DNA of 64,000 nucleotides from a virus. Its lineage: Duplodnaviria; Caudoviricetes. This document shows, piece after piece, positions 8,953 through 32,012 of this stretch; positions within the stretch are counted from its first letter, which is position 1; every line of letters starts with the position of its first letter. The notes beneath the pieces were generated by a model. It saw only the letters and a list, made by a program, of their open reading frames with translations, did not search any database and had not been told where the DNA came from. The stretch spans positions 1-64,000 of IMG/VR virus record IMGVR_UViG_3300048855_000167, one strand, 5' to 3'. The position numbers were made by a program, and so were the translations under genes.

Positions 8953-8982
8953 GCTCTCTGAAACTCCTCTTTTGTGTGGCTT

Positions 8983-17475: not shown

Positions 17476-19095
17476 TTAATCTATTTTAGGCCAAGTCGGC
17501 CAATCGTATCGGTCACGCTTCTTGCCGTTTTTGCTGACGGTGATGAAGCCGGTATTCACATGCGTCCCGACCGACGAGAACGAGTTAGGCGGGAGATCTT
17601 CCCACCGTGCGCCCATATCCTCCATCAGCTGGCGGAACGCGACCGACTTGTGTGTCTGTCGGAACTCGGTGCCGGCCGACATGATGGCGATCAACTTCCC
17701 GTCGGGCTTGAGGAAATTCAGGGCGTGGACGACATGGTCAATGTCCCGCTCCCGATCGAAGGGTGGGTTCATGACCACCAGGTCGTACAGCCCGGTGGTC
17801 TCTGGCTCGATCGACATGAAGTCCGCATTGAAGACGCGGCCAAGCTTCCTGGCTTTCAGATCCAGGATCAGGTGCGGCTGGATCTCGATGCAGTCGACGA
17901 CGTGGTCGACGCGGTACCGCTCCTGGTCCCAGCTCTTTTCGTAGTCGGGGTAGCACGCGACGGCGAGGTTGCCGGTACCCGCAGACGGCTCCAGGATCTT
18001 CAGGCGATCGCTCTCTTTCGAGCGGTGCCAGACGGGAGAGTTGCGGAGGATACGCTGCGCAGCGGCCGCCGGGGTAGGGTAGAAGCCGAAGTAGCGGGCA
18101 GGTGCCGTCTTCGCCTTCTCCGGGGAAAGCGGATCGTCGTCCACCTTGCGGCCATCGGCCAGCACTTCGCCATAGTATTCGCCGATCAGCTTGTTCACCT
18201 TGGCGACGAGAGCCTTCCGCGTAAACCATAGGTGAGCGTTGCCGTTCTTGAATATGCGGACCTTGAAATACTCGGTCTCAACTTCGGTCTGGCGAGCGCC
18301 GGTCTGACCGTGGCGGGCCAGGTCGATCTCGCCGATGGTCTTAGTGAAGTAGTCGGCGGGCCGCTTCTGGCGCCGGGCTGCTTCATTTTCCTCGTCCTGC
18401 TTGCGAACCTCGTTCAGCTTGCCGTCAAGGATGGTAAACGTCCGCTCGATATCGATCAGCGTGGAGCGCTCGTCCTTGTGGGAGCTCCAGTTCCAACTGC
18501 CGTAATCATTGAAGCAGCGGGTGAGAATCACGCGGGCTCCAACCTTGAACCCGTCGTGCGATCTGAAGCGACGGTCGAGCTTGGCGAAGGCGTTCGCCAT
18601 GCCGCGCCGGAAGATCATGTCGGCGTCCATCATGAACTGCTCGAGCGTCGCGAGGACGTTTTCGACGGTCACCGGCGGCATGCCCTTGGCGGCCTGCTCC
18701 TCGGTGATCAACTGACCGGGCTCGGTCGGCTCTTCGATGATGTGGGACATCTGCTCGCGCAGCTGATCCTTCGCCTGTCGATCCATCAGGTGCTCGAGCT
18801 CGGTGTGGCTGACCACCCATGCCCACACATTCAAGTCGATGATGTGCCGCTTCTCCCGCATGTAGTCGTCGAGGGGCGAGCGGCTGATCGGGTGGAGCGC
18901 GCGCCGAGTGTCGACCTCATACGCCGCGTTGTAAGCGTTGGTGCGGGGGAAGGCGCGCTTCGCCATGTCGATCGCTGCGAGCTCGGCCTCGTGAGCCTCT
19001 TCGATCTTGGCGTGGGCGATTTCGAATAACTCGAGCGCCTTGTCCCGATAGGCGACGATCTGCTCGACCGTGTTGCGGGGCACAACTGCGTTCAT
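17476..19095 (-). CDS. DUF4942-domain SAM-dependent DNA amino-methyltransferase
   Basis: ILEPSAGTGNL, VMNPPF; N-terminal FKIRIFKNGNAHLW-type region (FKVRIFKNGNAHLWF). Confidence 0.85.
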   Translation of the reverse strand: MNAVVPRNTVEQIVAYRDKALELFEIAHAKIEEAHEAELAAIDMAKRAFPRTNAYNAAYEVDTRRALHPISRSPLDDYMREKRHIIDLNVWAWVVSHTELEHLMDRQAKDQLREQMSHIIEEPTEPGQLITEEQAAKGMPPVTVENVLATLEQFMMDADMIFRRGMANAFAKLDRRFRSHDGFKVGARVILTRCFNDYGSWNWSSHKDERSTLIDIERTFTILDGKLNEVRKQDEENEAARRQKRPADYFTKTIGEIDLARHGQTGARQTEVETEYFKVRIFKNGNAHLWFTRKALVAKVNKLIGEYYGEVLADGRKVDDDPLSPEKAKTAPARYFGFYPTPAAAAQRILRNSPVWHRSKESDRLKILEPSAGTGNLAVACYPDYEKSWDQERYRVDHVVDCIEIQPHLILDLKARKLGRVFNADFMSIEPETTGLYDLVVMNPPFDRERDIDHVVHALNFLKPDGKLIAIMSAGTEFRQTHKSVAFRQLMEDMGARWEDLPPNSFSSVGTHVNTGFITVSKNGKKRDRYDWPTWPKID

Positions 19096-19158
19096 GCTGG
19101 TCTCCTGTAGTGCCATGCTTGGCGGGGTGGTGGTAAGGTCGCGCGAGGAGGCGCGACG

Positions 19159-19365
19159 ATGGTGCAATGCGAGGATTGCCGAGATGCGGGATGGGTGTGC
19201 GAGGCTCACCCGACAAAGCCCTGGACCGGGACGCACGGGTGCGGGTGCGGCGCAGCTGGAATGCCATGCCCGCATTGTTCTCAGGATCTTGCTTGGGACA
19301 AGCCGCCGGACACGTCGAAGATCTTTAGATCCGTGACGCACTTAGCCGGCAAGAAGGTGAATTGA
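19159..19365 (+). CDS. Small Cys-rich metal-binding protein
   Basis: CEDC..WVCEAH...CGCG..GMPCPHC. Confidence 0.65.
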   Translation: MVQCEDCRDAGWVCEAHPTKPWTGTHGCGCGAAGMPCPHCSQDLAWDKPPDTSKIFRSVTHLAGKKVN

Positions 19366-19400
19366 CCTCCGTCAGTGTGGACGGCCGGTCGGGCTATTCG

Positions 19401-20447
19401 TCAGGCCAATTCCATTCCGGCAGATTGGAAATCCGCTACGTTGATGCCGTGGCTACGGAAAGCATACGTACCGTCTGGCTGCTCACCGAAGGCCTGGGCC
19501 AGTCGACGGTTTATGAAGAGCCGGTTTCCTCTGAGCCGCTTCACCAGCTCAGCCTCACCTGCGAAACCATGCGCGACGGGTGCAGGGGGGCACTGATCGA
19601 GATCAGCAGCAAGCCTGGATATGTCGTCCTGGAGCCCATCAAGGAAGCTGGCCGGCCTGAAAGACGAGCGATCGACGTTCGCTACGAGGTCGGTCGCCCG
19701 AGTCCGATAGTTCGCGACGAACGACATCAGATCCTGTTCGGAGAGATTGAGCTCCGGTGAGTTAAGGTTGCACGAGATGCCTAAAGCCCCGAGGTCTCGC
19801 ATGATCTTCGTTCTGTATGACTGCGACGGGAACTCAGAGAGCTTTTGGCGTAGCCCCTCCAGCCCGAGGAATGGAACATGAAGCAGGCCAAGCCCGCTGT
19901 CGGTTCTCATCGGGCGGATCTGGATCAACCGACTGTCAGCGATCGGATACTTAGCGTTATGGTTGCCCATGACAGGCAAGATGTCCCGGAGTTTCCGGAG
20001 GTTGTAGATCAGTTTGCGGGTACTGCTGCGCCAAGTGGTGAATAGGAGCTTCCCCTGTCCGTCCAGCGGACCAGCGGATGTGGGAAAGCCATTGCGCCAC
20101 CTCATGGAAGTGACGGCCGTACCGCGGTGCTCTTCCATGAAAGCTGAAAGGTCAGCCTTAGATTTGAAAGGCAGGAACTCGTCGACGTCCAGCAGGAACA
20201 GGAAGTCGAACTCCCGCTTCAGGTCCAGCTTTTTCAGGAAGTATGCAGCGAAAAGCTCTTGAGCAAAGAGACTGGCCGAAACCCTGAAGGTGTCGATGCC
20301 ATCGCGGGCCAGGCCGCTCAATTGGCGGTCGCTGTTGTGGTCGATGATGATGATCTTATCGACAAGGCGTTGATGATGAGCAATGAAGGCGGGTAGGTAT
20401 CCAAATGAGTTCTTTACTTGAACGACTACGACTGCCTTCATTTCCAC
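19401..20447 (-). CDS. Glycosyltransferase family 2 (Glyco_tranf_2_4-like), moron
   Basis: VKNSFGYLPAFIAHHQRLVDKIIIIDHNS, LLDVDEFL DxD motif, GNH, LLHVP; visibly more AT-rich. Confidence 0.85.
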   Translation of the reverse strand: MEMKAVVVVQVKNSFGYLPAFIAHHQRLVDKIIIIDHNSDRQLSGLARDGIDTFRVSASLFAQELFAAYFLKKLDLKREFDFLFLLDVDEFLPFKSKADLSAFMEEHRGTAVTSMRWRNGFPTSAGPLDGQGKLLFTTWRSSTRKLIYNLRKLRDILPVMGNHNAKYPIADSRLIQIRPMRTDSGLGLLHVPFLGLEGLRQKLSEFPSQSYRTKIMRDLGALGISCNLNSPELNLSEQDLMSFVANYRTRATDLVANVDRSSFRPASFLDGLQDDISRLAADLDQCPPAPVAHGFAGEAELVKRLRGNRLFINRRLAQAFGEQPDGTYAFRSHGINVADFQSAGMELA

Positions 20448-20593
20448 GACCCTTCAAACCCAAACCTGTAAAACTGCTGCAGCGCAAAAAAACGTGTCTT
20501 TATAAGCATTGCTTACACCATACTGTAGAATGTGGCGGACCCAAAGCAAGAAGCGGTTGTGCTTCCTCACCCATTATTTTTTGCAGTTTCGCC

Positions 20594-20892
20594 TCAAGAA
20601 CCTGTTTGAGACGTCAAGGTTCCTGCCCATTGGGCGCCCTCCGTCGGGGAGGCGGCAAGAGCGGCGCGGCCGGCTGCTGTCAGTGTTGTGGTGCTCGTGT
20701 CGAAGCTGGTGTCGTGACTGGTTTGAAGCCAGCCCTTCTCTTGCAACGATTGAAGGTGTCGTCATGCTTACCGTGCACTTCGTCCTAGCAGAACCAGGTG
20801 AGCCAATTGCCCGGATAGTCGCGGCTGTCGGTCCGGCGGCCCATCGCCGCCATGATCTGCAGGAGGATGAATTCCTTCTGCTCAAGCCCCAT
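20594..20892 (-). pseudogene. Disrupted winged-helix-like phage gene
   Basis: MGLEQKEFILLQIMAAMGRRTDSRDYPGNWLTWFC, TAG at 20785-20787, DEVHGKHDDTFNRC, frameshift near 20745, then KGWLQTSHDTSFDTSTTTLTAAGRAAL. Confidence 0.5.
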
Positions 20893-21026
20893 CGCATTCG
20901 GTGCGGGCGATGGGGCCCGTCGTAGATCAACTGCTCGGTCTATGGGGGATTGTGAGCCATCTCTACCTGCAGCCGGGGGTAATTCTTAAGTACCTTTGCG
21001 ACAAATTCCATCGGGATGCCTATTCG

Positions 21027-21512
21027 ATGTCAGGGAAAGTGGAACGAGCCGTGAAGAGCAGGAATAAGTGGGGACTGATCGGGGTCCCGCTGGGTGGGTT
21101 ATGGTCGTTGGCAACGTACTTTTTTGGCGTTGGCGATGTGCCCTACTACGATTGGAAAACGGCTAATTCAGAGATGCTCGGGATGAACATTGGAGCGCTG
21201 TTAGGGGGACCTCTGATTTTCGGCATAATCGGTTTTTTGGCCGGACTAGTTTACGACCTGTTTAAGCGACGCCGCATGCCTAGGTACTACTTCCATGTCC
21301 GAGAGGGCGGTGTCCTCGGGAAAGATCCTAAGGGAACTAAGTTTGCCAACCTCGACGACGCCTACGATTATGCCGTCAAGGCCGCGCGGGAGGTAATTGC
21401 GGAGGTGGGTCTGGCCAACGACGTTATTGACGTGACCCGTTTCGAAATCACCGCCGAGGACGGGACTGTGCTTCGGGAGGTGCTGTTCCGATCCGCAGTT
21501 CAGCTCGACTAG
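21027..21512 (+). CDS. Two-TM membrane segment in frame with a DUF6894 domain (DUF6894 alone from 21276)
   Basis: Hydrophobic N-half, then MPRYYFHVREGG...FANLDDAYDYAVKAAREVI. Confidence 0.65.
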   Translation: MSGKVERAVKSRNKWGLIGVPLGGLWSLATYFFGVGDVPYYDWKTANSEMLGMNIGALLGGPLIFGIIGFLAGLVYDLFKRRRMPRYYFHVREGGVLGKDPKGTKFANLDDAYDYAVKAAREVIAEVGLANDVIDVTRFEITAEDGTVLREVLFRSAVQLD

Positions 21513-21644
21513 TCCGCCCGGTTTCAACTGGGGTGATGGGTCGGAAGCGACGGCAGCGATTGTGCTGGAGACCCTGCTCAACCGGTGACGGGAACGTGTT
21601 TCCCTTCTGGATGTTGGGGAGCTCCCAAGTATGAGAGTTGGAAC

Positions 21645-21896
21645 ATGCATGACCCTAGACGATGGCGTCGACCTGTTATCTACGAAGACGCGAGCGGCCT
21701 TGTCCGTAAAGTCAGCAGCACAGAGGAGGCGGCGGATATCCTGATTTCGTCGTGGCCGGTCAGCACTGGCAGAGAGTTCGAGAAGGCCCGTGAGATTTTC
21801 TTGCAGGTCATGAGCGGGGGACGGCCTCCGAGTGAAGCCCGGGCTGCATTTCTGCGAGCGGCGGAAGAAGCTGACCTCGATGTCAGCGGCAACTAA
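21645..21896 (+). CDS. DUF982 domain protein
   Basis: VSSTEEAADILISSWP...ARAAFLRAAEEA. Confidence 0.8.
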   Translation: MHDPRRWRRPVIYEDASGLVRKVSSTEEAADILISSWPVSTGREFEKAREIFLQVMSGGRPPSEARAAFLRAAEEADLDVSGN

Positions 21897-22004
21897 CCCG
21901 AGATACCGGTGTCCGGGTCGCCGCTCAGGCGCGGAAGTGTACGCTTCTTGACGAACGCGCTCTGCAGCCTTGACGGTTCGCCAAACGTGTTTGAGATTTA
22001 GCTC

Positions 22005-22286
22005 ATGCGAACGTTCTATTTTCACCTGAACCACCTGAGAGAGTTCATTGCCGATCCGGACGGTTCGGAACTCCCGGATCTCGAAGCGGCGAAGTCGGAG
22101 GCCCGCCAGGGTATCCGTGACATAGCGGCTGAATGCCTTCGGGCACGTCGAGAGTTCACACTCTGGAGTGTCCGAATTTGCAACGAAGAAGGTGATTTGC
22201 TGGCCGAAGTCTTGGCTCCCGAAGCCCTTAACGAGGTGCTTACCGGCCACATCTTCGTGTCGTCGAACTCCGACAGTCATGTCTGA
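22005..22286 (+). CDS. DUF6894 family protein
   Basis: FYFHL...DPDGSELPDLEAAKSEA. Confidence 0.8.
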   Translation: MRTFYFHLNHLREFIADPDGSELPDLEAAKSEARQGIRDIAAECLRARREFTLWSVRICNEEGDLLAEVLAPEALNEVLTGHIFVSSNSDSHV

Positions 22287-22291
22287 GCGGC

Positions 22292-22612
22292 TCATTGGCG
22301 GGCCTCCATCGCGGAGGCGGCAAGGGCGCGCGTGATCCTGTTCCAGGCAATAGCCTCGAGGTCGATTTCACTGTCGCTTGGCTTGTTGCCGGCGGCGATC
22401 GTCACCTCGTTCAGGTGGTGCCAGTGGGCGAACTCTTTGACGGTCGTGAGGAGATCACTCGCCACATGTGCCTGGGGCGGTGGGGTGCCGCCATCCTCAA
22501 TCTCCGCCAGTCGAGCAGCGGCCTCACGGCATGCGTCTCGCATATCGACCAGCTGTTTCGGGACTTTCTGTTTGTCTCCCCACCAGCGGAGTCGCTCAAT
22601 CAGTGTCGGCAT
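22292..22612 (-). CDS. Hypothetical phage protein
   Basis: MPTLIERLR...CREAAARLAEIE; follows dnaN. Confidence 0.65.
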   Translation of the reverse strand: MPTLIERLRWWGDKQKVPKQLVDMRDACREAAARLAEIEDGGTPPPQAHVASDLLTTVKEFAHWHHLNEVTIAAGNKPSDSEIDLEAIAWNRITRALAASAMEARQ

Positions 22613-22645
22613 TTCGATCTTCTTTGAGTTTGTCGGATGGTCGGG

Positions 22646-23806
22646 TCAAACCCGCATCGGCATCATGACGTAGGTGACGTCGTCATCGGCGCCGTCCTTG
22701 ACGATGGCCGGGTCGCCCGGTCCTCCGAGCTCAAGCATTGCGCCGCCGTCCAGCTGCGCCAGGATCTCGAGCAGGTAGCCGGCGTTGAAGCCGATCTCGA
22801 GTGTCACGTCGTGGTCGACGGTGATTTCGGTCGATGCGTGGCCGAAGTCCGGATCGTAGCAGGTGACGGCAATCTCGCCCGGGGTCAGCGTCAGCTTTGA
22901 CGATCGGCTCTTCTCGGCCGAGATGGACGAGGCCTGCTTGAGGGCGTCGATAAAGGCTGCCGTCCGGACCGGAACCTTGTGCTCGTTCCGCGTAGGGATG
23001 ACGCGCAGGTAATCCGGGAACGTGCCGTCGACCACCTTCGACTCGAGCAGCTCATCCTCACCGATGAGGAAGGACACGCCGTTGTCCGCGACCGAGACCA
23101 TGATATCGGACGGGCACTCCTTCCGCTTCAGGAGGCGCAGCAGCTCGCCGACTGTCTTCCGCGGGATGATGACGCCGTTCTCGGTCGCTTCCGCACCAGC
23201 CGGCGCCGGGATCTCGAAGCGAGCCAGGCGGTGACCGTCGGTCGCAACGAACGCCAGCCGGTTGTCGTGAGTGAGGTGCATGAAGACGCCGTTGAGATAG
23301 TAGCGCGTCTCCTCGGTTGAGATTGCGAGCTGGATCTTCGACATTGCCTTCAGCAGTGTGGCCGCCGGCACCATGAAGCTGACGTTCGACTTGCCGAGAG
23401 CGGTTCGGAACGCGGCGTCTTCCGGAAACTCCGACCGCTCGTGCTCCTGCTTCAGGGTGAGCTTCAACTTGCCGATCGAGACAGCCAGGCTATCACCGTC
23501 CAGGGTGAAGTTGATGTTGGCTGCGTCCTTCACCTTGTCCATGATGCCCTTCAGCTTGTGGGCATCGACGATCGCGAGGAAGCCGGTGTCAGCCTTACCG
23601 GCGACCAGCGTCGTGCTGTAGAGGTCCATGTCCGTGCCGATGACGTTCACGCCCTTGCGGTTGGAGGTGATGAGCACGGTGTTGAGGACCGGGATCGTGC
23701 TCTTCTTCTCGACCACCTTGCAGGCGTTGAGCATGGCCTTCTTGAAAACCGAATAATCGAGGGAGGCCGTCGACACAGGTGCGGCGATGATGGCGAGTGC
23801 GTTCAT
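22646..23806 (-). CDS. dnaN: DNA polymerase III beta sliding clamp, phage-encoded
   Basis: KSTIPVLNTVL, AISTEETRYYLNGV, VATDGHRLA, GTFPDY, IGFNAGYL, YVMMPMRV. Confidence 0.93.
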   Translation of the reverse strand: MNALAIIAAPVSTASLDYSVFKKAMLNACKVVEKKSTIPVLNTVLITSNRKGVNVIGTDMDLYSTTLVAGKADTGFLAIVDAHKLKGIMDKVKDAANINFTLDGDSLAVSIGKLKLTLKQEHERSEFPEDAAFRTALGKSNVSFMVPAATLLKAMSKIQLAISTEETRYYLNGVFMHLTHDNRLAFVATDGHRLARFEIPAPAGAEATENGVIIPRKTVGELLRLLKRKECPSDIMVSVADNGVSFLIGEDELLESKVVDGTFPDYLRVIPTRNEHKVPVRTAAFIDALKQASSISAEKSRSSKLTLTPGEIAVTCYDPDFGHASTEITVDHDVTLEIGFNAGYLLEILAQLDGGAMLELGGPGDPAIVKDGADDDVTYVMMPMRV

Positions 23807-23905
23807 TGATAGTCTCCGTGGTTCGCATGATTGCGGGGGGCGTACCGGGGGCGATTGACTCTCTTCGCTCTCCGGTTGAGAAACATCTCAAAGAGAGGGT
23901 ATTTT

Positions 23906-24226
23906 ATGCGCGCATTGTTGGTTGTTGTTTTCTTCGCAATCGCCGTCCCGGCGGCAGCATTGTCAGATCTGCAGAGGATGGAGCTAAGCCACAACCTCGG
24001 CATGACCCTTGCCTCAGAGGAACTTTGTGGTCTGCATTATGATCAGGATGCGATCGCAGCTTTCATAGAAAAGAAGGTGCCGGCAGACGATATGTCATTT
24101 GCCGGCTCGCTCAACATAATGACGATAGGTTCCGGGGTTCAGATCAAGGAAATGTCCCCGTCCTCGTTGACCGCGCACTGCGCGCAGATGAAGCGCGTGG
24201 CCAAGAGTTACGGCTTTATCAAGTGA
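23906..24226 (+). CDS. Secreted/periplasmic hypothetical protein
   Basis: Signal peptide MRALLVVVFFAIAVPAAA; two Cys; antisense to the island. Confidence 0.7.
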   Translation: MRALLVVVFFAIAVPAAALSDLQRMELSHNLGMTLASEELCGLHYDQDAIAAFIEKKVPADDMSFAGSLNIMTIGSGVQIKEMSPSSLTAHCAQMKRVAKSYGFIK

Positions 24227-24235
24227 CCAGGCCAC

Positions 24236-25402
24236 CTAGACGGAAATGCTGATCGGCTCACCGAACGGCAGATCCGCCGTCAACTCGTCGAACTTGCGCG
24301 GGTCGCCGTAGACCCCCCACAAAACCGGGATGTCCGGGTCGTCGCCGAAGTCGTAGACCTCCAGGTCGGTGAGGTAGATGATGAAGCGTGCATCCGGGTA
24401 CCGCTCCATGATGACCCTGAAGGAGTCGCGGAATGCGGTGCCGCCGCCGCCAACCGGGCGGAGCTTGAGCTCGTCCCCGTTCTCGAACTCCTCGATCCCC
24501 TGCACCTTGGCGTCGGCGTAGATGACGGTCAGCTTGTCGACCGCGCCCTCCTGGAATGCACCGTTGATTTCCGCGGCGAACGCCTTGCAGGGGACATCGT
24601 CGAAGACGGAGCCGGAGGAGTCCTGCACGATAACGCCGTGGCTGACGCCGTCACTGATCAAGCCCGGGGTGATGTAGCCGAGCGGCAGCATGCGCCGGTT
24701 CGGCTTAGCCCAGCTGAAATCCCTGGTCATGGACTCGTCGATGAAGCGGCGGAGCACCGCGCGCCAGTCCACCTTGGGGCGGAGCAGCTCTTCCACGAGC
24801 TTCGCGATGTTGGCGGGTAGTTTGCCGGCCTGCGCTCCCTTAGCAGCCATGGCGGCCTGCTGGATCTGCACGTTCATCTCCGCCTCGAGCTCGGCAATGG
24901 CCGACTGGTCATGCGGTGCGCAGCCGTCGAGCACACCGCCGCAACCGCCGCCGTCCATGCTGTTCTCGTCGGAGTCGTCGCCGTTGTTCTCATCGTCGAG
25001 GATTCGGTAGATTTCCTCAGCGGAGAGCCCAGTGAAACGCGGCTCAAGCAGCCCGCATTCCGGCATCTTGCCGACCTTGCACTCGACCAGTTCGCCGTTG
25101 ATGGCGTAGTCGGCGGCCTTGTTCCAGCGCCCGGGCTTGCGGTGCTGCCGGCGGGTGTGATGCTTCAGCGCGTTGTGCATGACCTCGTGAGCCAGGACGA
25201 AAACCAGCTCGTCCTTCTTCAGGTCCATGACGAACGGCGTGTGGTAGTAGAGGTGGCGCCCGTCGGTCGCCATCGTGTCGATGCGCGGGTCATTGGTCGC
25301 ATCGATCTTCTTCAGCTGCAGCATGAGCACGCCGAAGAACGGGTGGTCCCATAGCAGGGCCGTCTGCGCGGCGAGGATCTTGTCTTGGACGTTCATGGTC
25401 AT
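24236..25402 (-). CDS. DUF2201-type metallopeptidase plus vWA domain protein
   Basis: TMATDG, AHEVMH (HExxH), WNKAADYAIN, MIDAS-like DSSGSV, GGGGTAF, YLTDL. Confidence 0.88.
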   Translation of the reverse strand: MTMNVQDKILAAQTALLWDHPFFGVLMLQLKKIDATNDPRIDTMATDGRHLYYHTPFVMDLKKDELVFVLAHEVMHNALKHHTRRQHRKPGRWNKAADYAINGELVECKVGKMPECGLLEPRFTGLSAEEIYRILDDENNGDDSDENSMDGGGCGGVLDGCAPHDQSAIAELEAEMNVQIQQAAMAAKGAQAGKLPANIAKLVEELLRPKVDWRAVLRRFIDESMTRDFSWAKPNRRMLPLGYITPGLISDGVSHGVIVQDSSGSVFDDVPCKAFAAEINGAFQEGAVDKLTVIYADAKVQGIEEFENGDELKLRPVGGGGTAFRDSFRVIMERYPDARFIIYLTDLEVYDFGDDPDIPVLWGVYGDPRKFDELTADLPFGEPISISV

Positions 25403-25701
25403 GTCCTTCGTGCATGGTTGCGGGTGATGGAGGCGGCAATGCAGTCGGCGATCACTTCCGCCGGCAGTATTCGGTTGGCGACTTCGGCCGACAGGCTAGG
25501 ACTAAAGGTCCAGTAGTCAGTGGCGAGTTTGGAAGGCACCTTCTCAAGCTCGAAGCATCTTCGCCGGATGAAATACCAGAGATAGTAGGTGCGGATGCCT
25601 CGTTTGATGCCCCATAGCTGTGCGTGAACTGACCGGTCGGGGTTATCGTCATCGAGAGTCAGAGCCGCTAGCCACGCTTGCTTGCGGGCTTCGCTTGTCA
25701 T
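25399..25701 (-). CDS. Hypothetical protein
   Basis: MTSEARKQAW; 4-nt overlaps both sides. Confidence 0.6.
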   Translation of the reverse strand: MTSEARKQAWLAALTLDDDNPDRSVHAQLWGIKRGIRTYYLWYFIRRRCFELEKVPSKLATDYWTFSPSLSAEVANRILPAEVIADCIAASITRNHARRT

Positions 25702-25979
25702 GCCGCCGGCTTCATCGACAGCCGGGTGATGTGCGCCAGCTGGTCGGGCAGCAAGGCGGCGCGAAACTCCCCAATCCTCTCGTCCGTGATGCCTCTGCCC
25801 ATCTCCTTGCCGTGCCGGAACTTCACGAATTTTCGAAGGGTAAACTCTCGCACTTTCGGCTCGTAGGTGAGGCGGTACCGGCTTCGAGGATATTTGCGGG
25901 AGACGGGATCGAAATAGAAACGCACCGTCCCATCCTTCTCCTTCGACCATGGCGCTTTGAAGCGGCCTTTGATGTCCAT
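25698..25979 (-). CDS. Hypothetical protein
   Basis: AAGGAGG SD; 93 aa. Confidence 0.65.
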   Translation of the reverse strand: MDIKGRFKAPWSKEKDGTVRFYFDPVSRKYPRSRYRLTYEPKVREFTLRKFVKFRHGKEMGRGITDERIGEFRAALLPDQLAHITRLSMKPAA

Positions 25980-25982
25980 GGT

Positions 25983-26252
25983 TTACCTCCTTGTGATTGC
26001 CAGCGCCGTCGCCTTCGCGATCTCGGCCGCCGAGAGTTTAGATTTCAGGACGTTGGTGATGGTGTCGTCCATCGTTAAAGTGGTGTCGCCGTCGATAAAC
26101 ATCGTCGGGTGGAGGCAGTCGCCGGCCTCCGGTGAAATGCCCGCGGCGGCAAGTCCGGCCCGGTTCCGGCGCCCCTCGACTGACTGCTTGCCGGTGTGGC
26201 TCGCGGAGAACTTCCTCGCCGACGGCCCCCACACAGCCTTAAATTTAGGCAC
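25983..26252 (-). CDS. Hypothetical protein
   Basis: 89 aa, coupled to upstream gene. Confidence 0.55.
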   Translation of the reverse strand: MPKFKAVWGPSARKFSASHTGKQSVEGRRNRAGLAAAGISPEAGDCLHPTMFIDGDTTLTMDDTITNVLKSKLSAAEIAKATALAITRR

Positions 26253-26613
26253 CCATCTTCCCTCCTCGGATTGAGATCGCCGTCACCTCGGCGATATCTT
26301 CGGGCCTGAGCATCGACTTGAGTGCCACTGCCACGCTGCCTTTTGGGAGCATGCTGCGCAGGATGGCGATCGGGCGGTAAAGGTCCGCGAGATCGTTCGT
26401 GTGAACCTTGTCCCAATGGTTCACGGACAAGGCGGTCGAGGTGAATTTGCGCGTCCTCATGCTGAACGCGAGGTGATATCTGCGTAGTTCACCGGCGGCT
26501 GTCACGCCGATGAACTCCCACTTGCAGATCTCGATCACGCGGTCCGGGAAGGAGCCGGAATCACTCGTCTTGTACGAGATCGGCCCGGCAATCCAATGCA
26601 GGCCTTTATCCAA
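26245..26613 (-). CDS. Hypothetical protein
   Basis: 122 aa, overlaps AAA stop. Confidence 0.6.
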   Translation of the reverse strand: MDKGLHWIAGPISYKTSDSGSFPDRVIEICKWEFIGVTAAGELRRYHLAFSMRTRKFTSTALSVNHWDKVHTNDLADLYRPIAILRSMLPKGSVAVALKSMLRPEDIAEVTAISIRGGKMGA

Positions 26614-27613
26614 GCGTCACGTCCTGGTTCCGCACTGCCCAATCCGTGAAGGTTTGGGTGTGCGAAAGCCCTGCGTCACGGCGGACAGCGTCGACCGCGA
26701 ACATGATCTCGAACTCACGGGCGGGGATGCGTCGGATGTAGGCCATGCCGTTCTCGAACGTCTTGGCATCGACGCGCCGGCCGAGCGCCGCCGAGATTGC
26801 GAACCGTGCCGAAGGATCTTCGGGAAGCGGCGCGCTGTTCGGGTTGGCAAGAACCAGGTCCAGCGAGGGGAGCTTCTGGTAAACCCGAATGAAGCCTTCC
26901 AGCTCGCCGGCCGCACCGTCGCCGACGACGCCCGAGATCAGCGACAGGCGACGTGCCGAGTCCTTCTCGATGTATTTGGCCGCTTGCTCCCATGACCGCG
27001 GCGTCGGGAATGCACGGTCGTCGGACGACTCCGGCATCTTGTGGATGAGGTGCGGCCGGAAGCGGAGGAAGGCAATCATGATCGGGTCCATGCCGATCTT
27101 GTTGAAGTGCTCGACATGCACGTTGTCGTGGCCGGCGCTGGTGTCGGCCTCGATATCAATGTGAGCGAAGCGGTTGGCGAGTGCGGTCGGCATGCGCTGT
27201 GCTGCTGCGCGGTCCGATTGACGATTGCCGGCGGCAACCACGCGCCAGCCATCGGGCAGCTTGTAGTCGCCGACCCTGCGATCGAGGACCAGGCCGAACA
27301 TGGCGGCCATCATGGACGGCGGTGCGGCGTTGAGCTCGTCGAGGAAGAGGATGCCTTCCGGACCGTCGCGCTCCACCTGCGGAAACTCGTCGGGCACCTT
27401 CCATTTCGTGGTGTCGCCGGAGATATCGGGAAGGCCCATGAGGGCAACCGAGTCACGGGTGGAAGCGCGGAAGTCGATCAGGCCCCACTTGCGTTCCGTC
27501 TTGATCTGCACGGTGATTGCGGACTTGCCGACGCCGGGCGGCCCCCACATAAACGCTGGGGTATCTTCGTCGAGGTAGTCGTTCAGATTAAGAGCGGCTG
27601 TCTTAATGTGCAT
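26606..27613 (-). CDS. MoxR/dynein-related AAA+ ATPase
   Basis: WGPPGVGKS, LFLDELNAA, VAAGNR, ALANRFAH, TPRSWE. Confidence 0.92.
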   Translation of the reverse strand: MHIKTAALNLNDYLDEDTPAFMWGPPGVGKSAITVQIKTERKWGLIDFRASTRDSVALMGLPDISGDTTKWKVPDEFPQVERDGPEGILFLDELNAAPPSMMAAMFGLVLDRRVGDYKLPDGWRVVAAGNRQSDRAAAQRMPTALANRFAHIDIEADTSAGHDNVHVEHFNKIGMDPIMIAFLRFRPHLIHKMPESSDDRAFPTPRSWEQAAKYIEKDSARRLSLISGVVGDGAAGELEGFIRVYQKLPSLDLVLANPNSAPLPEDPSARFAISAALGRRVDAKTFENGMAYIRRIPAREFEIMFAVDAVRRDAGLSHTQTFTDWAVRNQDVTLG

Positions 27614-27981
27614 TGGTCGTCTCCTTGTGTGCCATGAGTGGCGATGGTGGGAGTGATGCCGAACCGCACCTGAGTGACGGCGGCGATGTCTAGGGGCAGA
27701 AGCAGCGTGAGCGCTGCATCGGCCAGTTTTTCGCGAGGGAAGCGAGGGAAGCTTTCGCTCGGGTAGGCTGACAGGTCAGAGGGGATGCGGTAGTCGCTGA
27801 AGGGGGCGCCGGGCTTGTTGACCGGGCGACGTCTCGCCTTCAGTTCCTTGTCGTGCTTCCAGAGACCCATTTCATAGCGGTCGATGCCTGCGCCATCGTC
27901 AAGGACGAAGGCAAACCAGAACTTCAGCCGCAATCCTGTCACCTGCCTGGCATAGGGGCCGATCAGGAGTCCGGTGGGCAT
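27583..27981 (-). CDS. Hypothetical protein
   Basis: Start MPTG directly after upstream stop; alternative start 28002. Confidence 0.55.
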   Translation of the reverse strand: MPTGLLIGPYARQVTGLRLKFWFAFVLDDGAGIDRYEMGLWKHDKELKARRRPVNKPGAPFSDYRIPSDLSAYPSESFPRFPREKLADAALTLLLPLDIAAVTQVRFGITPTIATHGTQGDDQCTLRQPLLI

Positions 27982-27982
27982 G

Positions 27983-28345
27983 TCATTTCCAAATGATCTC
28001 ATCCGGGAAGAGGACGGCCGGGCCGCAAATGGGCGGCAGTTCCTCGGGGTCCATCGCTGGGCGCTGGGTCATCATGTTGTTCCGGTAGATCTCGGTCGCC
28101 CTCACGTTTCGGATGTGGCGTTCGTTGATGTTGCTGGTCTCACCGACGAACATGTCGCGGCGCTCGCCTTCGTAGAGGACGGCAACGTGCTCGACGGGCT
28201 CGTCAAACGTGTCCGGCAGGACGCGCTTGATCCAGTCGGAGATTGTCTCTCTGGTGAAGCGTGGCTCCATTTTGCGCTCTTTCGTCTCACCGAGCGCCGG
28301 GATGATCAAAGCCCGGGCAGACGTTCCTGTTCTGAGGCCGGTCAA
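27983..28345 (-). CDS. Hypothetical protein
   Basis: TTG after AAAGGAGA SD; RDMFVGE...NVRATEIY...ICGPAVLF. Confidence 0.6.
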   Translation of the reverse strand: MTGLRTGTSARALIIPALGETKERKMEPRFTRETISDWIKRVLPDTFDEPVEHVAVLYEGERRDMFVGETSNINERHIRNVRATEIYRNNMMTQRPAMDPEELPPICGPAVLFPDEIIWK

Positions 28346-28371
28346 TGGGCTCTCCTTTGTGTGATTGCGAG

Positions 28372-28411
28372 AAAAAGGGCGCCTCCGATATCTCATTTCC
28401 GGAAGCGCCCT
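28372..28411 (-). terminator. Intrinsic terminator inside the island
   Basis: Minus strand AGGGCGCTTCCG-loop-CGGAGGCGCCCT then TTTT. Confidence 0.65.
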
Positions 28412-28519
28412 CGTTGCGGCGTTACTAGTGGACTACATGCGCGCCCTCCGTTCGTTATTGACATTCAGGGTGAGCACCCCTGCCTTCCGGTCTCCACACC
28501 TACCGGGCAGGGATCGGGG

Positions 28520-29416
28520 TTAGGCGAGGAAGTCGGACACGGAGTCCAGAATGCGTTGCGCCTCGGCCGCGGTGTCCTTGCGGATGGCAGCGTCTTCCTT
28601 CAGGGCGGCGGCATCGTATTTCGTGAGCGCCTTCAGCCGCCGGCCCAAGGCGTCCAGCTCGGGCGAGCCGACGATGTTGAGCGACGGCATGACGCTAATC
28701 AGATCGGCGATGTTCTCGACGAGGCTGGAGCGGAAACCGCCGGTTCGTTCGCCGGGGGTGAAGCTGTTGAGGCGGTCGACCATGCGCTCGGTGAGTGTGG
28801 CAATGCGCTGATAGACGTCTCGGACCGCGTTCTCGGTCGCCTTCTGCAGCTGCTCCTCGATGTCGGCCCGGATGAGCGCGGCGTGCGCCTCCGACATGTC
28901 GACGCGGAAATCGGCGGACGAGGGCACCGGCAGGACCGAATAAACGATGCCGAACTTTTCCCGGATCTCGTTGCTGGTCGGGTAGTCGGCGGCCTTGAAC
29001 AGCTTGCCCATGCGCTTTTGCGCGTCGGTGACGTGCTGGTCGAAGTGGTTCACCAGCTTGTCCACCTCGCGCTGAAACTTGGCGGACTGGACGCGCATCC
29101 ACGCGGTGAAGGGGAGATAGCCGTCGGCGCTGATGATGCGGCCGCCGTCGTTGAGCCACGGCAGGGTGCGCTCATAGAAGCCGTTGCGCGTCTCGCTGAC
29201 GAGCGTCTGAATACCGGCGAGCGCTTCCTTGCTCACCAGCAGCTTGTTAACGCGGGAGGCGTCGGACGCGGCGTTGTGGGAGTCGTTGAGCTCCTGCGTC
29301 ACCTGACGGTCGAGGCGGCGGCCGGACCACTGCGAAATCGTCACGCTGACGATCATCGCGCGGCTGGCGAGGGTGGAGGTGGAGGCAGAGAGGGTAGCTG
29401 GGGTCATGGAATTCAC
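28520..29416 (-). CDS. DUF3150-like helical protein
   Basis: VSVTISQWSGRR, TLPW, YPTSNEIREKF, FRSSLVENI. Confidence 0.65.
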   Translation of the reverse strand: MNSMTPATLSASTSTLASRAMIVSVTISQWSGRRLDRQVTQELNDSHNAASDASRVNKLLVSKEALAGIQTLVSETRNGFYERTLPWLNDGGRIISADGYLPFTAWMRVQSAKFQREVDKLVNHFDQHVTDAQKRMGKLFKAADYPTSNEIREKFGIVYSVLPVPSSADFRVDMSEAHAALIRADIEEQLQKATENAVRDVYQRIATLTERMVDRLNSFTPGERTGGFRSSLVENIADLISVMPSLNIVGSPELDALGRRLKALTKYDAAALKEDAAIRKDTAAEAQRILDSVSDFLA

Positions 29417-29455
29417 GTTCAGTCTCCTTTGGTTGCCATTATTGGCGGGGCTGGA

Positions 29456-29644
29456 TCAGTCTTTGACCTGGAGGATTGACTCGATTTGCTCGTCCTCCGG
29501 GTCGCTCTCCTCCCATTCGATTCCGTTGACATGGCGGAAGCCTTTGGCGACCTGGAACCGGGCCGCTTCCATGCTTTCGTCTTCGATGGTGAGTTCTGCT
29601 GTCAGGTGGCGGATGGCGCGCACCTGCACGATAAAGGTGGGCAT
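29456..29644 (-). CDS. Small hypothetical protein
   Basis: MPTFIVQVRAIRH with GGAGA SD and island hairpin motif. Confidence 0.65.
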   Translation of the reverse strand: MPTFIVQVRAIRHLTAELTIEDESMEAARFQVAKGFRHVNGIEWEESDPEDEQIESILQVKD

Positions 29645-29714
29645 TGTCGTCTCCATGGGTGCCATAGTTGGCGGGGAAAGAAGGAACCTACACGGTAGGC
29701 TGCGAGGGGAGAAG

Positions 29715-30026
29715 TCACGGGGCGAAGGCGATGGCGCGCGCGGCGTCAATCTCCTCGCGTCGGCGCATGAACGAATCCCAACGGCCGATCATGTCCAAAT
29801 CGGCATGGCTGTACCATGTGCGGCCGTCGGCGAGCTTCGTTGCTTTCGCCAATACGCCGGCGGCCGTTATCACGCCGTCAAGCTCACCCGAGGGCTTGAA
29901 GATCTTCACTTCCTTGCCGTGCACCTCGTAATAACCGGACGCGGTGCCATCGGGATTGAACAGGGTGTCCACCACGGCGCGCTTGCCGCGCACGAAGGTG
30001 CGGCCGTTAAGCTGGAACGACGTCAT
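29715..30026 (-). CDS. Hypothetical protein
   Basis: MTSFQLNGRTFVRGK. Confidence 0.6.
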   Translation of the reverse strand: MTSFQLNGRTFVRGKRAVVDTLFNPDGTASGYYEVHGKEVKIFKPSGELDGVITAAGVLAKATKLADGRTWYSHADLDMIGRWDSFMRRREEIDAARAIAFAP

Positions 30027-30240
30027 GACCGGGCTCCCACAGGATTTGCAAAACCTCCTCCAGATCCTCGACGTGAGGCGGGAGGCGGACGGCGCGCAGC
30101 TCATGCAGCGTGATGCCGGCGAGCGTGGCGCGGGCATGCATCTGTTGCGCGCACTCGACGGCCGCGGGGCCGTTCGGGAATGGCAGCGATAACGGGACGA
30201 AGTCGCACCAGATGACGGCGAAAATCTCACCTTTGTCCAT
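30007..30240 (-). CDS. Hypothetical protein
   Basis: 77 aa, GAGGA SD. Confidence 0.5.
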   Translation of the reverse strand: MDKGEIFAVIWCDFVPLSLPFPNGPAAVECAQQMHARATLAGITLHELRAVRLPPHVEDLEEVLQILWEPGHDVVPA

Positions 30241-30247
30241 TTAGTCC

Positions 30248-30568
30248 TCACAGGCTTATGCGGATCGACACGGAGAAATCCACCGGAGCGATTTGCGGTG
30301 GCGGGCGGTAGATCGGCGCGGGTTTCGGTTTAGGCGCGCGTTTGGCGGCCTTGACGGGATTCGGGCGCGGCAACGGTGCCGGGCCAGCGATGGGCGGTTC
30401 TGCGAACAGCTCCGGTGCTGGCGCTGGCGGAGCAACAACGGGTGCCAGCGCCACAGGGGCGGGCGCTGGAACGGGTGCGGGCTTGCTGTTGGAGATTATG
30501 CCTGTGGCGCCTTGGAAGAGCACGAGGGCGACGGTCGCAAGCGTGGGGAAGCCGCCAGCGTGACTCAT
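30248..30568 (-). CDS. Membrane-anchored Pro/Ala-rich protein
   Basis: Hydrophobic TLATVALVLF then PAPVPAPAPVALAP repeats; ATGA-coupled. Confidence 0.55.
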   Translation of the reverse strand: MSHAGGFPTLATVALVLFQGATGIISNSKPAPVPAPAPVALAPVVAPPAPAPELFAEPPIAGPAPLPRPNPVKAAKRAPKPKPAPIYRPPPQIAPVDFSVSIRISL

Positions 30569-30798
30569 GCGGCGGTTCGCTCGCGGGACGGCAGGAAGAT
30601 CTCCCACGCTTCCCGGGTCGACAGATAGCGCTCATAGGCGCCACGAAGCGCGGTGCCTGGCTCGCCATGGGCGCGCGGGGTATAGCGGACGTCGCCAGCC
30701 CACTCGCGCGGGAAGGTGCGGCGGATCTCGTCCATCCATTCCTCATCGGCGGCGAGGTGCGCGGCGTAGGCGGCAGCCATGGGGGTGATGTCAGGCAT
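30565..30798 (-). CDS. Hypothetical protein
   Basis: 77 aa, coupled. Confidence 0.6.
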   Translation of the reverse strand: MPDITPMAAAYAAHLAADEEWMDEIRRTFPREWAGDVRYTPRAHGEPGTALRGAYERYLSTREAWEIFLPSRERTAA

Positions 30799-30949
30799 TT
30801 CGGATCTCCTCTCGTGCTTCGCGCAGAATGCGCCAGACGTCCTCTTTCACCTCTGAATTGGTGGGCTCGCGGCCGAGGCGGGCGGTAAGGCGGTTCCAGA
30901 TTGTGTTTTGGTTGTCATTCCGGAACGTGATGCTGACAGTGATCGGCAT
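30791..30949 (-). CDS. Small hypothetical protein (52 aa, not in ORF track)
   Basis: MPITVSITFRNDNQNTIWNRLTARLGREPTNSEVKEDVWRILREAREEIRNA; CAGGAGA SD plus hairpin motif. Confidence 0.7.
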   Translation of the reverse strand: MPITVSITFRNDNQNTIWNRLTARLGREPTNSEVKEDVWRILREAREEIRNA

Positions 30950-31122
30950 GGGATCTCCTGTTTGCATGATTGCGGGGTGTCGCGCGGCGCTGATATCGGG
31001 GGCAGGCAGCGGCGCGCATGGTCCTGCCGGTGGAATGTGAGCGGGCTTTAACGGTTCCCGCGCATGCGTTGCCTCCGTTATGCGGTTGATCGGCGGGCGG
31101 TGGATGACGTGTGAAAACCCAC

Positions 31123-31209
31123 CTATGGAGGCGGATCTTCAGGTTCGGGCAGTAAGGGCGCGGCCAAGGCGGCGGACATGGTGAACAGGAACGCGCGGCG
31201 GGTCATCAT
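31123..31209 (-). CDS. 28-aa peptide resembling an isolated Tat signal peptide
   Basis: MMTRRAFLFTMSAALAAPLLPEPEDPPP; ATGA overlap with a 30-aa hydrophobic ORF (31206-31298). Confidence 0.35.
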   Translation of the reverse strand: MMTRRAFLFTMSAALAAPLLPEPEDPPP

Positions 31210-31300
31210 GTGGGCTTAATCGCTTCCAGATATTCGACCCAGCGAAGCGCGACGACCCATAGGGCGAGGATGAGCGCGGCGCCCTTTCGTAGAGACATGG

Positions 31301-31324
31301 AAAAGGGGAGGCTAATGCCTCCCC
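31301..31324 (-). terminator. Intrinsic terminator
   Basis: Minus strand GGGGAGGC-ATTA-GCCTCCCC then TTTT. Confidence 0.75.
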
Positions 31325-31353
31325 CCATCGATTACGGACCAACCGCGTATCTG

Positions 31354-31923
31354 TCAGGCGGCAATGTCCATTTCCGCCTGCTCCGGTGCGGCCGCCGGTG
31401 CCGTCTTGACGGCCTTCGCCTTGGCAGGCTTTTCCACCTTGACCGGTGCGACGACAACGTTCGGCGTCTTAGCCAGCGTCAAGGCACCCTTGACCGCCTG
31501 CAGAACGCGAGGAGACGCACCCTTTTCCGTCAGGGTCGAGACCACTTTTTCCAGATAGGCGACTTCATCGAATTCCTTTTCGGACGTCGCCTTGCCTGCC
31601 GAGCGTTCATAGTTGGCAGGTGCGATTTCCATCGCCTCATCCATCTTGGAAGCCTTCCCCTTAACGTAGGTGAAGACACTGGTTGCCTTGTCAAACGAGA
31701 CCTTGCCGAAAGCCGTCGACCACGAAACGAGACCCTTGCGGTAGTTGACCGGAGTCACCGCATAAAGCGCGTTGAGGTATTTCGGATCGTTGTGCAATTC
31801 GACATGGTTGAGTGCCGAATATGCAAGCTGATGCTCGCGCTCCGAAAAGGTCGAAACGACCTTGCCGAAACCGTTGATTGCCGAATTGAGCTTGGAACCA
31901 GTGAGAACAACGAACTTAGCCAT
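31354..31923 (-). CDS. Hypothetical early phage protein
   Basis: MAKFVVLTGSKLNSAING; GGAGA SD plus hairpin motif; Ala/Lys-rich tail. Confidence 0.8.
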   Translation of the reverse strand: MAKFVVLTGSKLNSAINGFGKVVSTFSEREHQLAYSALNHVELHNDPKYLNALYAVTPVNYRKGLVSWSTAFGKVSFDKATSVFTYVKGKASKMDEAMEIAPANYERSAGKATSEKEFDEVAYLEKVVSTLTEKGASPRVLQAVKGALTLAKTPNVVVAPVKVEKPAKAKAVKTAPAAAPEQAEMDIAA

Positions 31924-32012
31924 AACCATTTCTCCATTTGTGCCATGATTGGCGGGTTTGAAGCGATTGCTTCACTAAAGGCATGCCGTTGGACATGCCC
32001 TTAAAGCTGCAA

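Follow-up and report, generated by a model that had tools for sequence, protein, structure and literature searches.

A start-linked mini-hairpin with a covarying stem is very likely a shared RNA control signal in early operons of alphaproteobacterial prophages

Ten genes of a temperate phage are preceded by the same mini-hairpin, which stands directly upstream of their Shine-Dalgarno (SD) sequences. The phage is represented by the IMG/VR record IMGVR_UViG_3300048855_000167, a virus record of 73,950 nt, whose bases 1–64000 (GC content ~60%) are the DNA analyzed here and are referred to as the window. The element follows the consensus CCC-[SSCA]-AYYA-[TGSS]-A, then 2–8 nt (mode 6), GGAG(A), a further 6–8 nt and the start codon. 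It consists of a stem of 4 bp (sometimes 3), a 4-nt A-Y-Y-A loop, a C-run on the 5' side and an A on the 3' side, and leads into a C/A-rich spacer. Eight copies lie in a 16-kb leftward gene island (~32.7 to 17.0 kb) placed between the replication and packaging genes, and one each in the leftward (pL) and rightward (pR) early operons. The stem covaries among related prophages, the motif keeps one strand and one position relative to start codons, and it is restricted to the phages. This start-linked hairpin is very likely a shared RNA control signal; tentatively, we interpret it as an mRNA operator in the ribosome-binding region that is read by a dedicated factor.

Position of the hairpin upstream of ribosome-binding sites

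A preliminary description of this DNA had listed eight minus-strand palindromes, at 19112, 23824, 25412, 27631, 29435, 29661, 30964 and 31942. All of them are present, each followed by an SD and a start codon, and the C-run described before the stem was found as well. Scans of both strands of the 64 kb with a sequence-only covariance model (no base pairs), built from ten copies, recovered these ten copies at 14.9–25.5 bits, with the next best match at 7 bits and no match in the late genes. The core pattern GCCAN4TGGC occurred six times in the window against 1.6 expected occurrences, and a longer pattern including the SD four times against 0.04 expected. When the whole record was scanned for perfect-stem cores irrespective of an SD or start codon, nine were detected, eight of which had an SD 5–6 nt past the stem and then a start codon; the remaining one (53333), within a late gene, matches by chance. 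The hairpin is thereby placed at about −29 to −18 relative to the start codon, within the region covered by the 30S ribosomal subunit.

The island copies are all on the minus strand. In the direction of transcription, the first (31921–31956, 25.5 bits) comprises CCC, the hairpin GCCA-ATCA-TGGC at 31942–31953, an SD at 31935 and an ATG at 31923, and heads the gene of a 189-amino-acid (aa) protein (31354–31923; phrog_1448). The second (30947–30977, 19 bits) has CCC and the 3-bp form (C)GCA-ATCA-TGC(A) at 30963–30974, with an SD at 30959 and an ATG at 30949, and heads a 52-aa gene (30791–30949). Its stem contains an ATG (30965–30967) in frame with this gene, which would give an alternative 58-aa reading; the hairpin-internal ATG is probably not a conserved start, because it is out of frame in other copies. 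A 62-aa gene is headed by the third copy (29642–29676, 22.6 bits; CCCC, GCCA-ACTA-TGGC at 29661–29672, SD at 29654, ATG at 29644), and the gene of a 298-aa DUF3150-like protein (28520–29416) by the fourth (29414–29450, 20.1 bits), which consists of CCCC and GCCA-ATAA-TGGC at 29435–29446 and is followed by an SD at 29428 and a GTG at 29416. The fifth (27611–27645, 21.1 bits; GCCA-CTCA-TGGC at 27631–27642, ATG at 27613) precedes the gene of a MoxR-type AAA_5 ATPase (26606–27613). Before the gene of a DUF2201 metallopeptidase/VWA protein (24236–25402), the sixth copy (25394–25425, 14.9 bits) is again of the 3-bp type, (C)GCA-ACCA-TGC(A) at 25411–25422, with the start codon at ATG 25396 or 25402. 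The seventh (23804–23839, 23.6 bits; CCCC, CGCA-ATCA-TGCG at 23824–23835, SD at 23817, ATG at 23806) heads the gene of a DnaN-like sliding clamp (22646–23806), and the eighth (19093–19127, 22.8 bits; CCCC, GCCA-AGCA-TGGC at 19112–19123, SD at 19106, ATG at 19095) that of a DUF4942 methyltransferase (17476–19095).

The preliminary description had stated that the motif is absent from the pL, pR and late operons, which is correct for the late genes only. In the pR operon, a plus-strand copy (10202–10237, 23.1 bits; CCCC, GGCA-ACAA-TGCC at 10206–10217, SD at 10224, ATG at 10235) heads a 61-aa gene (phrog_8618). In the pL operon, a minus-strand copy (654–688, 17.4 bits; CGCA-AAAA-TGCG at 674–685, SD at 667, ATG at 656) heads the gene of a 55-aa basic protein.

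Degenerate GCAATCAC copies had also been described before the starts at 25979 and 28345, and both were found on the minus strand. The one at the 28345 start (28343–28372), CTCGCAATCAC..AAGGAGA..TTG, has lost the 3' arm, and its ortholog in the Rhizobium sp. CF080 prophage is an intact (C)GCA-ATCA-TGC(A). The other (25977–26003), GGCAATCAC..AAGGAGG..ATG at 25979, likewise has no 3' arm. Two intact copies had further been placed inside upstream coding sequence. This holds for the copy at 27631, which lies in the 3' end of the gene 27583–28002; for the copy at 25412 it is uncertain, because the upstream open reading frame (ORF) 25399–25950 fails a codon-position GC test.

Covariation and strand of the stem-loop

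Base pairing was evaluated in loci fetched solely by homology to the DUF3150-like protein, to remove ascertainment bias. In this unbiased set, aligned with a pair-free model, 98.2% of the stem cells were standard pairs, compared with 74.4% in column shuffles, and none of 500 shuffles reached the observed pairing. Sliding the partner column by 1–3 positions reduced pairing to 14–30%. The first, pattern-derived set of copies gave the same pairing result.

Stem and loop types were tallied over 85 distinct copies. The most frequent stem was GCCA/TGGC (44 copies), followed by CGCA/TGCG (23), GGCA/TGCC (6), the 3-bp form (C)GCA/TGC(A) (6) and TGCA/TGCA (3); the other three stems were single-copy variants, and mixed, non-complementary combinations of arms were not observed among these 85 copies. 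Elsewhere in the phage family, GTCA/TGAC, CTCA/TGAG and CCCA/TGGG stems were found. The inner C-G and A-U pairs were invariant, and all variation was located in the two outer pairs, both of which switch among G-C, C-G and U-A. Such switches also occur at orthologous sites: the site before the 189-aa gene carries GCCA/TGGC, GGCA/TGCC or CGCA/TGCG, the one before the ATPase gene GCCA/TGGC, CGCA/TGCG or GTCA/TGAC, and the one before the DUF3150-like gene either GCCA/TGGC or TGCA/TGCA. The switching of stem type at orthologous sites identifies these changes as true compensatory substitutions and not merely as two repeat subfamilies. The compensatory stem changes proposed in the preliminary description are thus strongly confirmed in the relatives. 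Moreover, symmetric G-C/C-G swaps within one genome do not suit a DNA-binding dimer, and therefore indicate a constraint on a folded single strand.

The last loop base was A in 84 of the 85 distinct copies and the first in 68, so that the earlier statement that the loop always ends and usually starts with A mostly holds. The spacer toward the SD is strongly poor in G and U. Loop ends, inner pairs, the 5' C-run and the 3' A were near-invariant even where the adjoining proteins are only 45–60% identical, a near-invariance that is partly built in, as the R1 model selecting the copies was built on these very features.

Exceptions at the loop-closing pair comprised 12 cases of G.U and none of A.C, the wobble expected of the opposite strand, which fits pairing in the sense strand. 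The position and orientation of the hairpin relative to the SD also point to the mRNA. The hairpin was predicted to form in eight of the ten native sequence contexts. A search of both strands of the 64-kb window with the Rfam covariance models yielded no match at E ≤ 1, and a search for RNA-seq runs containing the island sequence returned none.

Distribution among prophages and host genomes

The motif is common to myovirus-type prophages of ~55–77 kb in root- and soil-dwelling alphaproteobacteria. Prophages bearing it were found in Rhizobium sp. CF080, Ensifer, Brucella (Ochrobactrum) pecoris and tritici, Pseudochrobactrum, Peteryoungia and Devosia. In IMG/VR, scanning with the pattern gave many isolated matches at chance level, along with a set of 53–77 kb proviruses that contain two to five exact matches each. 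Five of these IMG/VR proviruses, searched with the model, contained 8–13 matches each, clustered on one strand in a block of 15–20 kb, plus isolated copies at positions equivalent to the pL and pR copies of the window. No copy was present in the late regions of the six proviruses formed by the window and these five. In the loci fetched by DUF3150-like homology, and hence independently of the motif, all 55 matches were oriented along the gene strand.

The motif was absent, both at the locus and genome-wide, from the more distantly related prophages of Pseudovibrio, Hoeflea, Roseibium and a Burkholderiales metagenome-assembled genome (MAG), despite the presence of the same core genes, which in these four relatives are at similar divergence. 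In the motif-less Roseibium MAG prophage, GC-rich hairpins with T-runs, for example CCCGCC-ATTGA-GCGGG-TTTTTTT, stand before the DUF3150-like, ATPase and clamp genes; they look like terminators that take the place of the mini-hairpin before each gene. The leaders of the 189-aa and DUF3150-like orthologs in the Hoeflea MAG prophage both read TTTTCC-(T)GCAACC-(T)GAAAA..TGGAGA, an element similar to the motif in its 5' arm and loop but lacking a 3' arm. The UUUCC stretch of these leaders could pair with the SD, and the element may be a decayed or alternative form of the signal.

In five host genomes, for each of which 150 candidates were scored with the model, all strong matches were located inside the prophage. 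An exhaustive pattern scan of the same five genomes (25.6 Mb) gave 31 matches in prophage contigs, all 31 with complementary stems. Outside the prophages there were 11 matches, of which two were complementary, close to the chance expectation of 1 in 4, and a reversed control pattern matched twice in the same 25.6 Mb. The preliminary description had named an equal frequency of the motif at host or late-gene starts as an observation that would speak against its proposal; this was looked for and not seen. Outside the prophage contig region, Rhizobium sp. CF080 has a single full motif-like site (G006:C13:1696463-1696488; CCCGCAACTATGCGAACGAACGGGAG), the stem of which is complementary. It could be a chance match or part of a second related element.

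Genes preceded by the hairpin

Ten of the ~24 island genes carry the motif, eight in intact and two in degenerate form. Many of the motif-less starts overlap or abut the preceding stop codon (for example those at 30798, 30568, 30240, 28002, 26613 and 26252), which argues for translational coupling, and the remaining motif-less island genes sit in a lower-GC insert at 19.4–22.6 kb. As the genes without a hairpin are thus either coupled or part of this insert, the hairpin appears to mark those cistrons that recruit ribosomes independently. Across 15 genomes or loci, 126 motif-led ORFs fell into 55 protein families, including 37 singletons, so that the number of unrelated families behind the motif is at least 55.

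Possible functions of the hairpin

We infer that the hairpin acts in RNA, is read by a factor and affects translation. Covariation, strand and start linkage favor RNA-level readings, among which an operator and a processing signal are inseparable by sequence. Of the readings considered, we tentatively prefer the mRNA operator. A dedicated trans-acting factor would recognize the invariant loop together with the inner C-G and A-U pairs, the two outer stem positions would need pairing only, and binding of the factor would gate the access of 30S subunits. The early accessory gene set, which comprises ~10 genes in each phage and no fewer than 55 gene families in the phage family as a whole, would then be switched together at the level of translation. 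The hairpin occupies the ribosome-binding region of every cistron of the repressor-controlled early operons that needs its own ribosome recruitment; coupled cistrons and the apparently recently acquired low-GC genes lack it. Specific bases in the loop and inner stem, combined with an outer stem that requires only pairing, are typical of a protein-binding RNA operator, and the sequence-specific conservation of loop, inner pairs and flanks therefore favors a reader over mere structure. Some observations weigh against this interpretation. The hairpin alone is weak (−1.7 to −3.5 kcal/mol), and the outermost pair shows 20 C.A variants, which would be U.G on the antisense strand and weaken the strand argument. 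These variants have shorter spacers and are compatible with 3-bp stems that are flanked by C and A as usual. Candidates for a reader that were rejected include the obvious RNA-binding proteins (Hfq, CsrA, ProQ, S1, KH, cold-shock, Com and RegA-like), none of which was found among the early-operon proteins by Pfam and PHROGs; an RMF match in 9690–10178 was weak and did not reach the cut-off of that family. With only two detectable homologs, the 55-aa basic protein encoded after the pL copy cannot serve the whole phage family as reader.

The evidence from position, strand, covariation and conservation counts equally for an RNA processing or stabilizing signal, which we regard as possible but rather unlikely. 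Here a host or phage endoribonuclease would recognize the C-run and hairpin and cut just 5' of them, converting the 16-kb transcript into units with a 5'-terminal stem-loop that are protected from 5'-end-dependent decay and expose their SD. It is in keeping with such a signal that the motif forms the 5' edge of each gene unit and that internal terminator-like hairpins (~32243–32275, 31301–31325 and 29685–29701) structurally punctuate the island transcript. Bacterial mRNAs can be stabilized by 5'-terminal stem-loops, and RegB of phage T4 cleaves early mRNAs at SDs. However, a stem of 3–4 bp is short for a protective 5' hairpin, and the early operons contain no nuclease candidate beyond the HNH protein and DNA exonucleases. 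An initiation module that acts only in cis seems quite unlikely to us. The hairpin and the G-poor C/A spacer would keep the SD from pairing with variable upstream coding sequence or offer the 30S subunit a standby or docking site, so that whatever gene enters the operon would be translated at a standard rate. This would agree with the presence of the motif before 55 unrelated protein families, with its traveling together with the gene unit, with its occurrence only where ribosomes initiate de novo, and with the strong depletion of G and U in the spacer. Yet over 48 copies the SD opening energy was 2.40 kcal/mol in the wild type; breaking the 5' arm gave 2.28 kcal/mol and breaking the 3' arm 2.72 kcal/mol. 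In silico stem breaking in these copies thus caused no consistent change of SD accessibility, and an insulator of the ribosome-binding site was rejected, as was docking to rRNA, since the loop region has no complement in the host 16S rRNA. An insulator would also leave the near-invariant loop ends, inner pairs and flanks unexplained, and the late genes of the same phage do without the motif.

The preliminary description had suggested an operator, a processing signal or short homology for recombination; the first two are favored by our data, and the third is very unlikely as the primary function. The ~30-nt conserved leader would in that case mainly provide homology for RecT-type swaps of cassettes between related phages. 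The phage encodes RecT and exonucleases, and in seven of eight genome pairs, two to four of 8–16 homology blocks had their upstream end at −7 to 0 nt of the stem, where ~1% would be expected; the eighth pair had no upstream block end near a stem. Downstream block ends were almost never close to a stem. As upstream and not downstream ends coincide with the stem, the unit of mosaicism is the hairpin plus its gene. In addition, the loops of the window and of its 97%-identical relative, the prophage of Rhizobium sp. CF080, differ before two conserved genes that are 93–97% identical. On the other hand, homology requires neither covariation nor a fixed strand or SD spacing. The coincidence of block ends is expected for any conserved leader adjoining unrelated upstream DNA, and sharp changes of identity also occur at motif-less boundaries, such as those from the 120-aa to the 139-aa gene and from the ATPase to the 122-aa gene. 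Cassette shuffling is therefore better regarded as a consequence or side benefit. Equally poor, or slightly poorer, are the prospects of an element acting in DNA, either as operator for a dimeric DNA-binding protein (for example the helix-turn-helix (HTH) protein encoded at the operon end, acting as a roadblock) or as part of a promoter or pause signal. In double-stranded form the motif is an inverted repeat of 12 bp, the HTH protein co-occurs with it, and the internal terminators imply that downstream genes need antitermination or new promoters. But outer G-C/C-G swaps would not be tolerated by a dimer reading the sequence and not be selected by one that does not contact these positions. Nothing conserved upstream of the C-run could form a −35/−10 pair, a sigma-70 scan found no promoter at the motif sites above background level, and the phage encodes no RNA polymerase. 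A sigma-54 promoter (TGGCAC-N5-TTGC) was rejected, as TGGCAC occurs only in GCCA-type copies and is then followed by the C/A spacer and GGAG, not by TTGC; half of the copies read TGCG or TGCC in place of TGGC, and a −12 GC element is lacking. Hairpin promoters for a phage-encoded RNA polymerase were rejected too, the large late proteins being terminase, portal, head-protease, sheath, tape measure and fiber.

An operon-end HTH protein as candidate reader

The last gene of the island (16993–17439, minus strand) encodes a 149-aa two-domain HTH protein, which is the leading though weakly supported candidate for the reader and, by analogy, might act like Aca2. It is 61–97% conserved (38% in Devosia), more than most of its neighbors, and is encoded as a single copy inside the prophage in all nine distinct motif-bearing genomes that were examined. 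Searches with this protein did not find it in the four motif-less genomes. The motif was likewise present, upstream and in the same orientation as the gene, in each of the 13 IMG/VR contigs with an ortholog; in two of these contigs it takes G.U-closed or CTCA/TGAG forms that the model scores poorly or misses. In the AlphaFold model (pLDDT 82.7), a beta/alpha domain at the N-terminus is followed by an XRE-type HTH at the C-terminus. Among solved structures, SO3848/YdiL-type proteins, Aca10, Aca1, MqsA, HigA2 and Aca2 are the nearest (Z 7.8–9.8, HTH domain only), and a Foldseek search with the model gave no match at E ≤ 0.001.

Several findings argue against this assignment. The fold matches are of a size common to any XRE domain, and the protein has no significant Pfam or PDB sequence match and no membership in an Aca family. 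That it co-occurs with the motif may go back to one evolutionary event within a single clade, and the same pattern of presence and absence is displayed by a 112-aa HTH protein (9348–9686), the HNH gene (10429–10809) and an 89-aa ORF (25983–26252). A search of the island promoter and leader (32.2–32.9 kb) with the covariance model detected no motif-like DNA copy. This promoter carries a cI-type operator palindrome, and an inverted-repeat search upstream of the first island gene in eight genomes revealed no shared motif-like DNA operator. It is conceivable but rather unlikely that one operon-end antitoxin- or Aca-like HTH protein reads at least 10 identical mini-hairpins on the 16-kb mRNA plus the pL and pR copies, and in this way sets when a whole, freely exchangeable set of accessory or anti-host genes is translated. 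If true, this would amount to a phage-wide RNA regulon, in which an incoming gene would become regulated simply by its position behind a hairpin.

Organization of the phage genome

An S24/HTH repressor gene (8215–8985, minus strand) is flanked by the two early operons. The pL operon encodes an AAA ATPase, a PDDEXK exonuclease, RecT and an RNase_T exonuclease, and the pR operon small HTH proteins, an HNH protein, an MT-A70 methylase, a primase and a DnaB helicase. Late genes run rightward from ~33.8 kb and encode terminase, portal, a head-protease fusion, tail sheath, tape measure and fibers, a gene set that identifies a temperate myovirus without an RNA polymerase of its own. A near-identity search of cultured phages yielded no match to the window, and a search at the protein level matched only distant DUF3150 proteins of cyanophages.

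The palindrome AATACGN3CGTATT occurs six times in the window, against 0.7 expected occurrences. Five copies flank the repressor gene within 7563–9023, and the sixth, a pattern match without assigned strand, is located at the head of the island (32711–32725). The location of this sixth repressor-operator palindrome suggests that the island is a repressor-controlled early operon, likely under direct repressor control as judged from the sequence. The long island leader contains a terminator-like hairpin. In total, three hairpins resembling intrinsic terminators, with T-runs and all on the minus strand, were noticed inside the island: one in the leader (~32243–32275), one directly 3' of the 189-aa gene (31301–31325) and one before the 29672 hairpin (29685–29701). 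For the 16-kb operon to be transcribed, antitermination or internal promoters are probably required.

Besides the 189-aa protein, the DUF3150-like protein, the ATPase, the metallopeptidase/VWA protein, the clamp and the methyltransferase, the island encodes many small orphan proteins before it ends with the HTH gene. The genes of the DUF3150-like protein, MoxR-type AAA_5 ATPase and DUF2201 metallopeptidase/VWA protein (24236–29416) form a universally conserved core, which is retained even in the motif-less relatives, and the DUF3150 protein is retained in cyanophages at 35% identity. The lower-GC insert (19401–22612; 0.56 versus 0.61) contains a family-2 glycosyltransferase gene and two orphan genes, has no homologs in any relative examined and no hairpins, and looks like a recent foreign acquisition within the island. 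Next to the repressor gene, the stretch 7450–8200 is, when translated, 81–98% conserved among relatives, compared with 30% for the repressor itself. Its ORFs are not protein-like in appearance, and it may be non-coding regulatory DNA or an RNA.

Comparison with known phage elements

Our literature search found no description of this motif, of DUF3150 phage operons or of intergenic repeats in rhizobial prophages. The preliminary description had compared the hairpin with the start-associated sequences (SAS) of mycobacteriophages. SAS and extended SAS (ESAS) elements of Cluster K mycobacteriophages occur in 11–19 copies per genome, and a role in translation initiation has been suspected (Pope et al. 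2011, PMC3203893). The SAS consensus is the 13-bp sequence GGGATAGGAGCCC, which includes the SD and lies 3–7 bp from the start codon, and ESAS are 17-bp imperfect inverted repeats whose variation gave no support for RNA pairing; the authors favored DNA binding (PMC3203893). Like SAS and ESAS, the motif is a short repeat in one orientation near the start codons of non-structural genes from many families, and is essentially absent from the host. However, the asymmetric SAS contains the SD, whereas the conserved CCC-SSCA-AYYA-TGSS-A lies upstream of a separate GGAG(A). The two systems also differ in host phylum and in sequence, and pairing is supported only for the present motif. The earlier analogy is therefore apt as a description, but parts from ESAS in the compensatory changes.

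The HTH protein Aca2 blocks ribosome binding by attaching to hairpins in the 5' untranslated regions of acr mRNAs (Birkholz et al. 2024, as cited in Feussner et al. 2026, PMC13551039). An RNA hairpin is bound by Aca1 as well, and RNA motifs of this kind have been predicted between genes within operons (PMC13551039). These motifs resemble ours in being small covarying hairpins by the ribosome-binding site of phage early or anti-defense genes. In the Aca systems the hairpin is bound by an HTH regulator encoded at the operon end, and by analogy the operon-end XRE-type HTH protein would be the corresponding candidate here. In Aca systems the RNA site is accompanied by a DNA site in the promoter, unlike in this island, for which no related DNA operator was found, and there are one to three hairpins in contrast to ~10 copies along a 16-kb operon. 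Furthermore, no acr gene was identified, and the HTH protein of the island belongs by sequence to no Aca family.

Other known elements share single features with the hairpin. T4 RegA and the coat proteins of MS2 and PP7 are translational repressors that bind mRNA at or by the ribosome-binding site, and RegA covers many early genes. RegA sites are unstructured, and MS2 has only one operator, which contains a bulged A and includes the start codon; the 4-nt loop of this operator has A in its first and last position like the A-Y-Y-A loop, a resemblance that may be coincidence. No homolog of RegA or of the MS2/PP7 coat proteins was found in this phage. The promoter-early stem-loops (PeSL) of T4-type phages, which consist of an early promoter and a terminator-like stem-loop, operate at the DNA or transcription level. 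They too are repeated stem-loop cassettes at the boundaries of early accessory genes and coincide with mosaic joints, whereas the hairpin described here is linked to the SD and lacks a promoter part.

Start-associated phage repeats have been described since 2011. The present motif offers a tractable case, as it is tiny, phage-confined, marked by multiple independent compensatory changes and accompanied by one specific candidate reader, with motif-less relatives that carry the same genes and degenerate copies as natural negative controls. If an HTH protein is the reader, RNA binding by HTH regulators would extend from one or two anti-CRISPR sites to a translational regulon spanning a whole operon, and the hairpin could serve as a marker for early accessory, probably anti-host, genes in prophages of rhizobia and of relatives of Brucella/Ochrobactrum. 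If it acts only in cis, it would represent a natural, portable and standardized ribosome-binding cassette for alphaproteobacteria. In its behavior, the hairpin is closest to the SAS of Cluster K mycobacteriophages, and in its proposed mechanism to the RNA motifs of Aca2 and Aca1.

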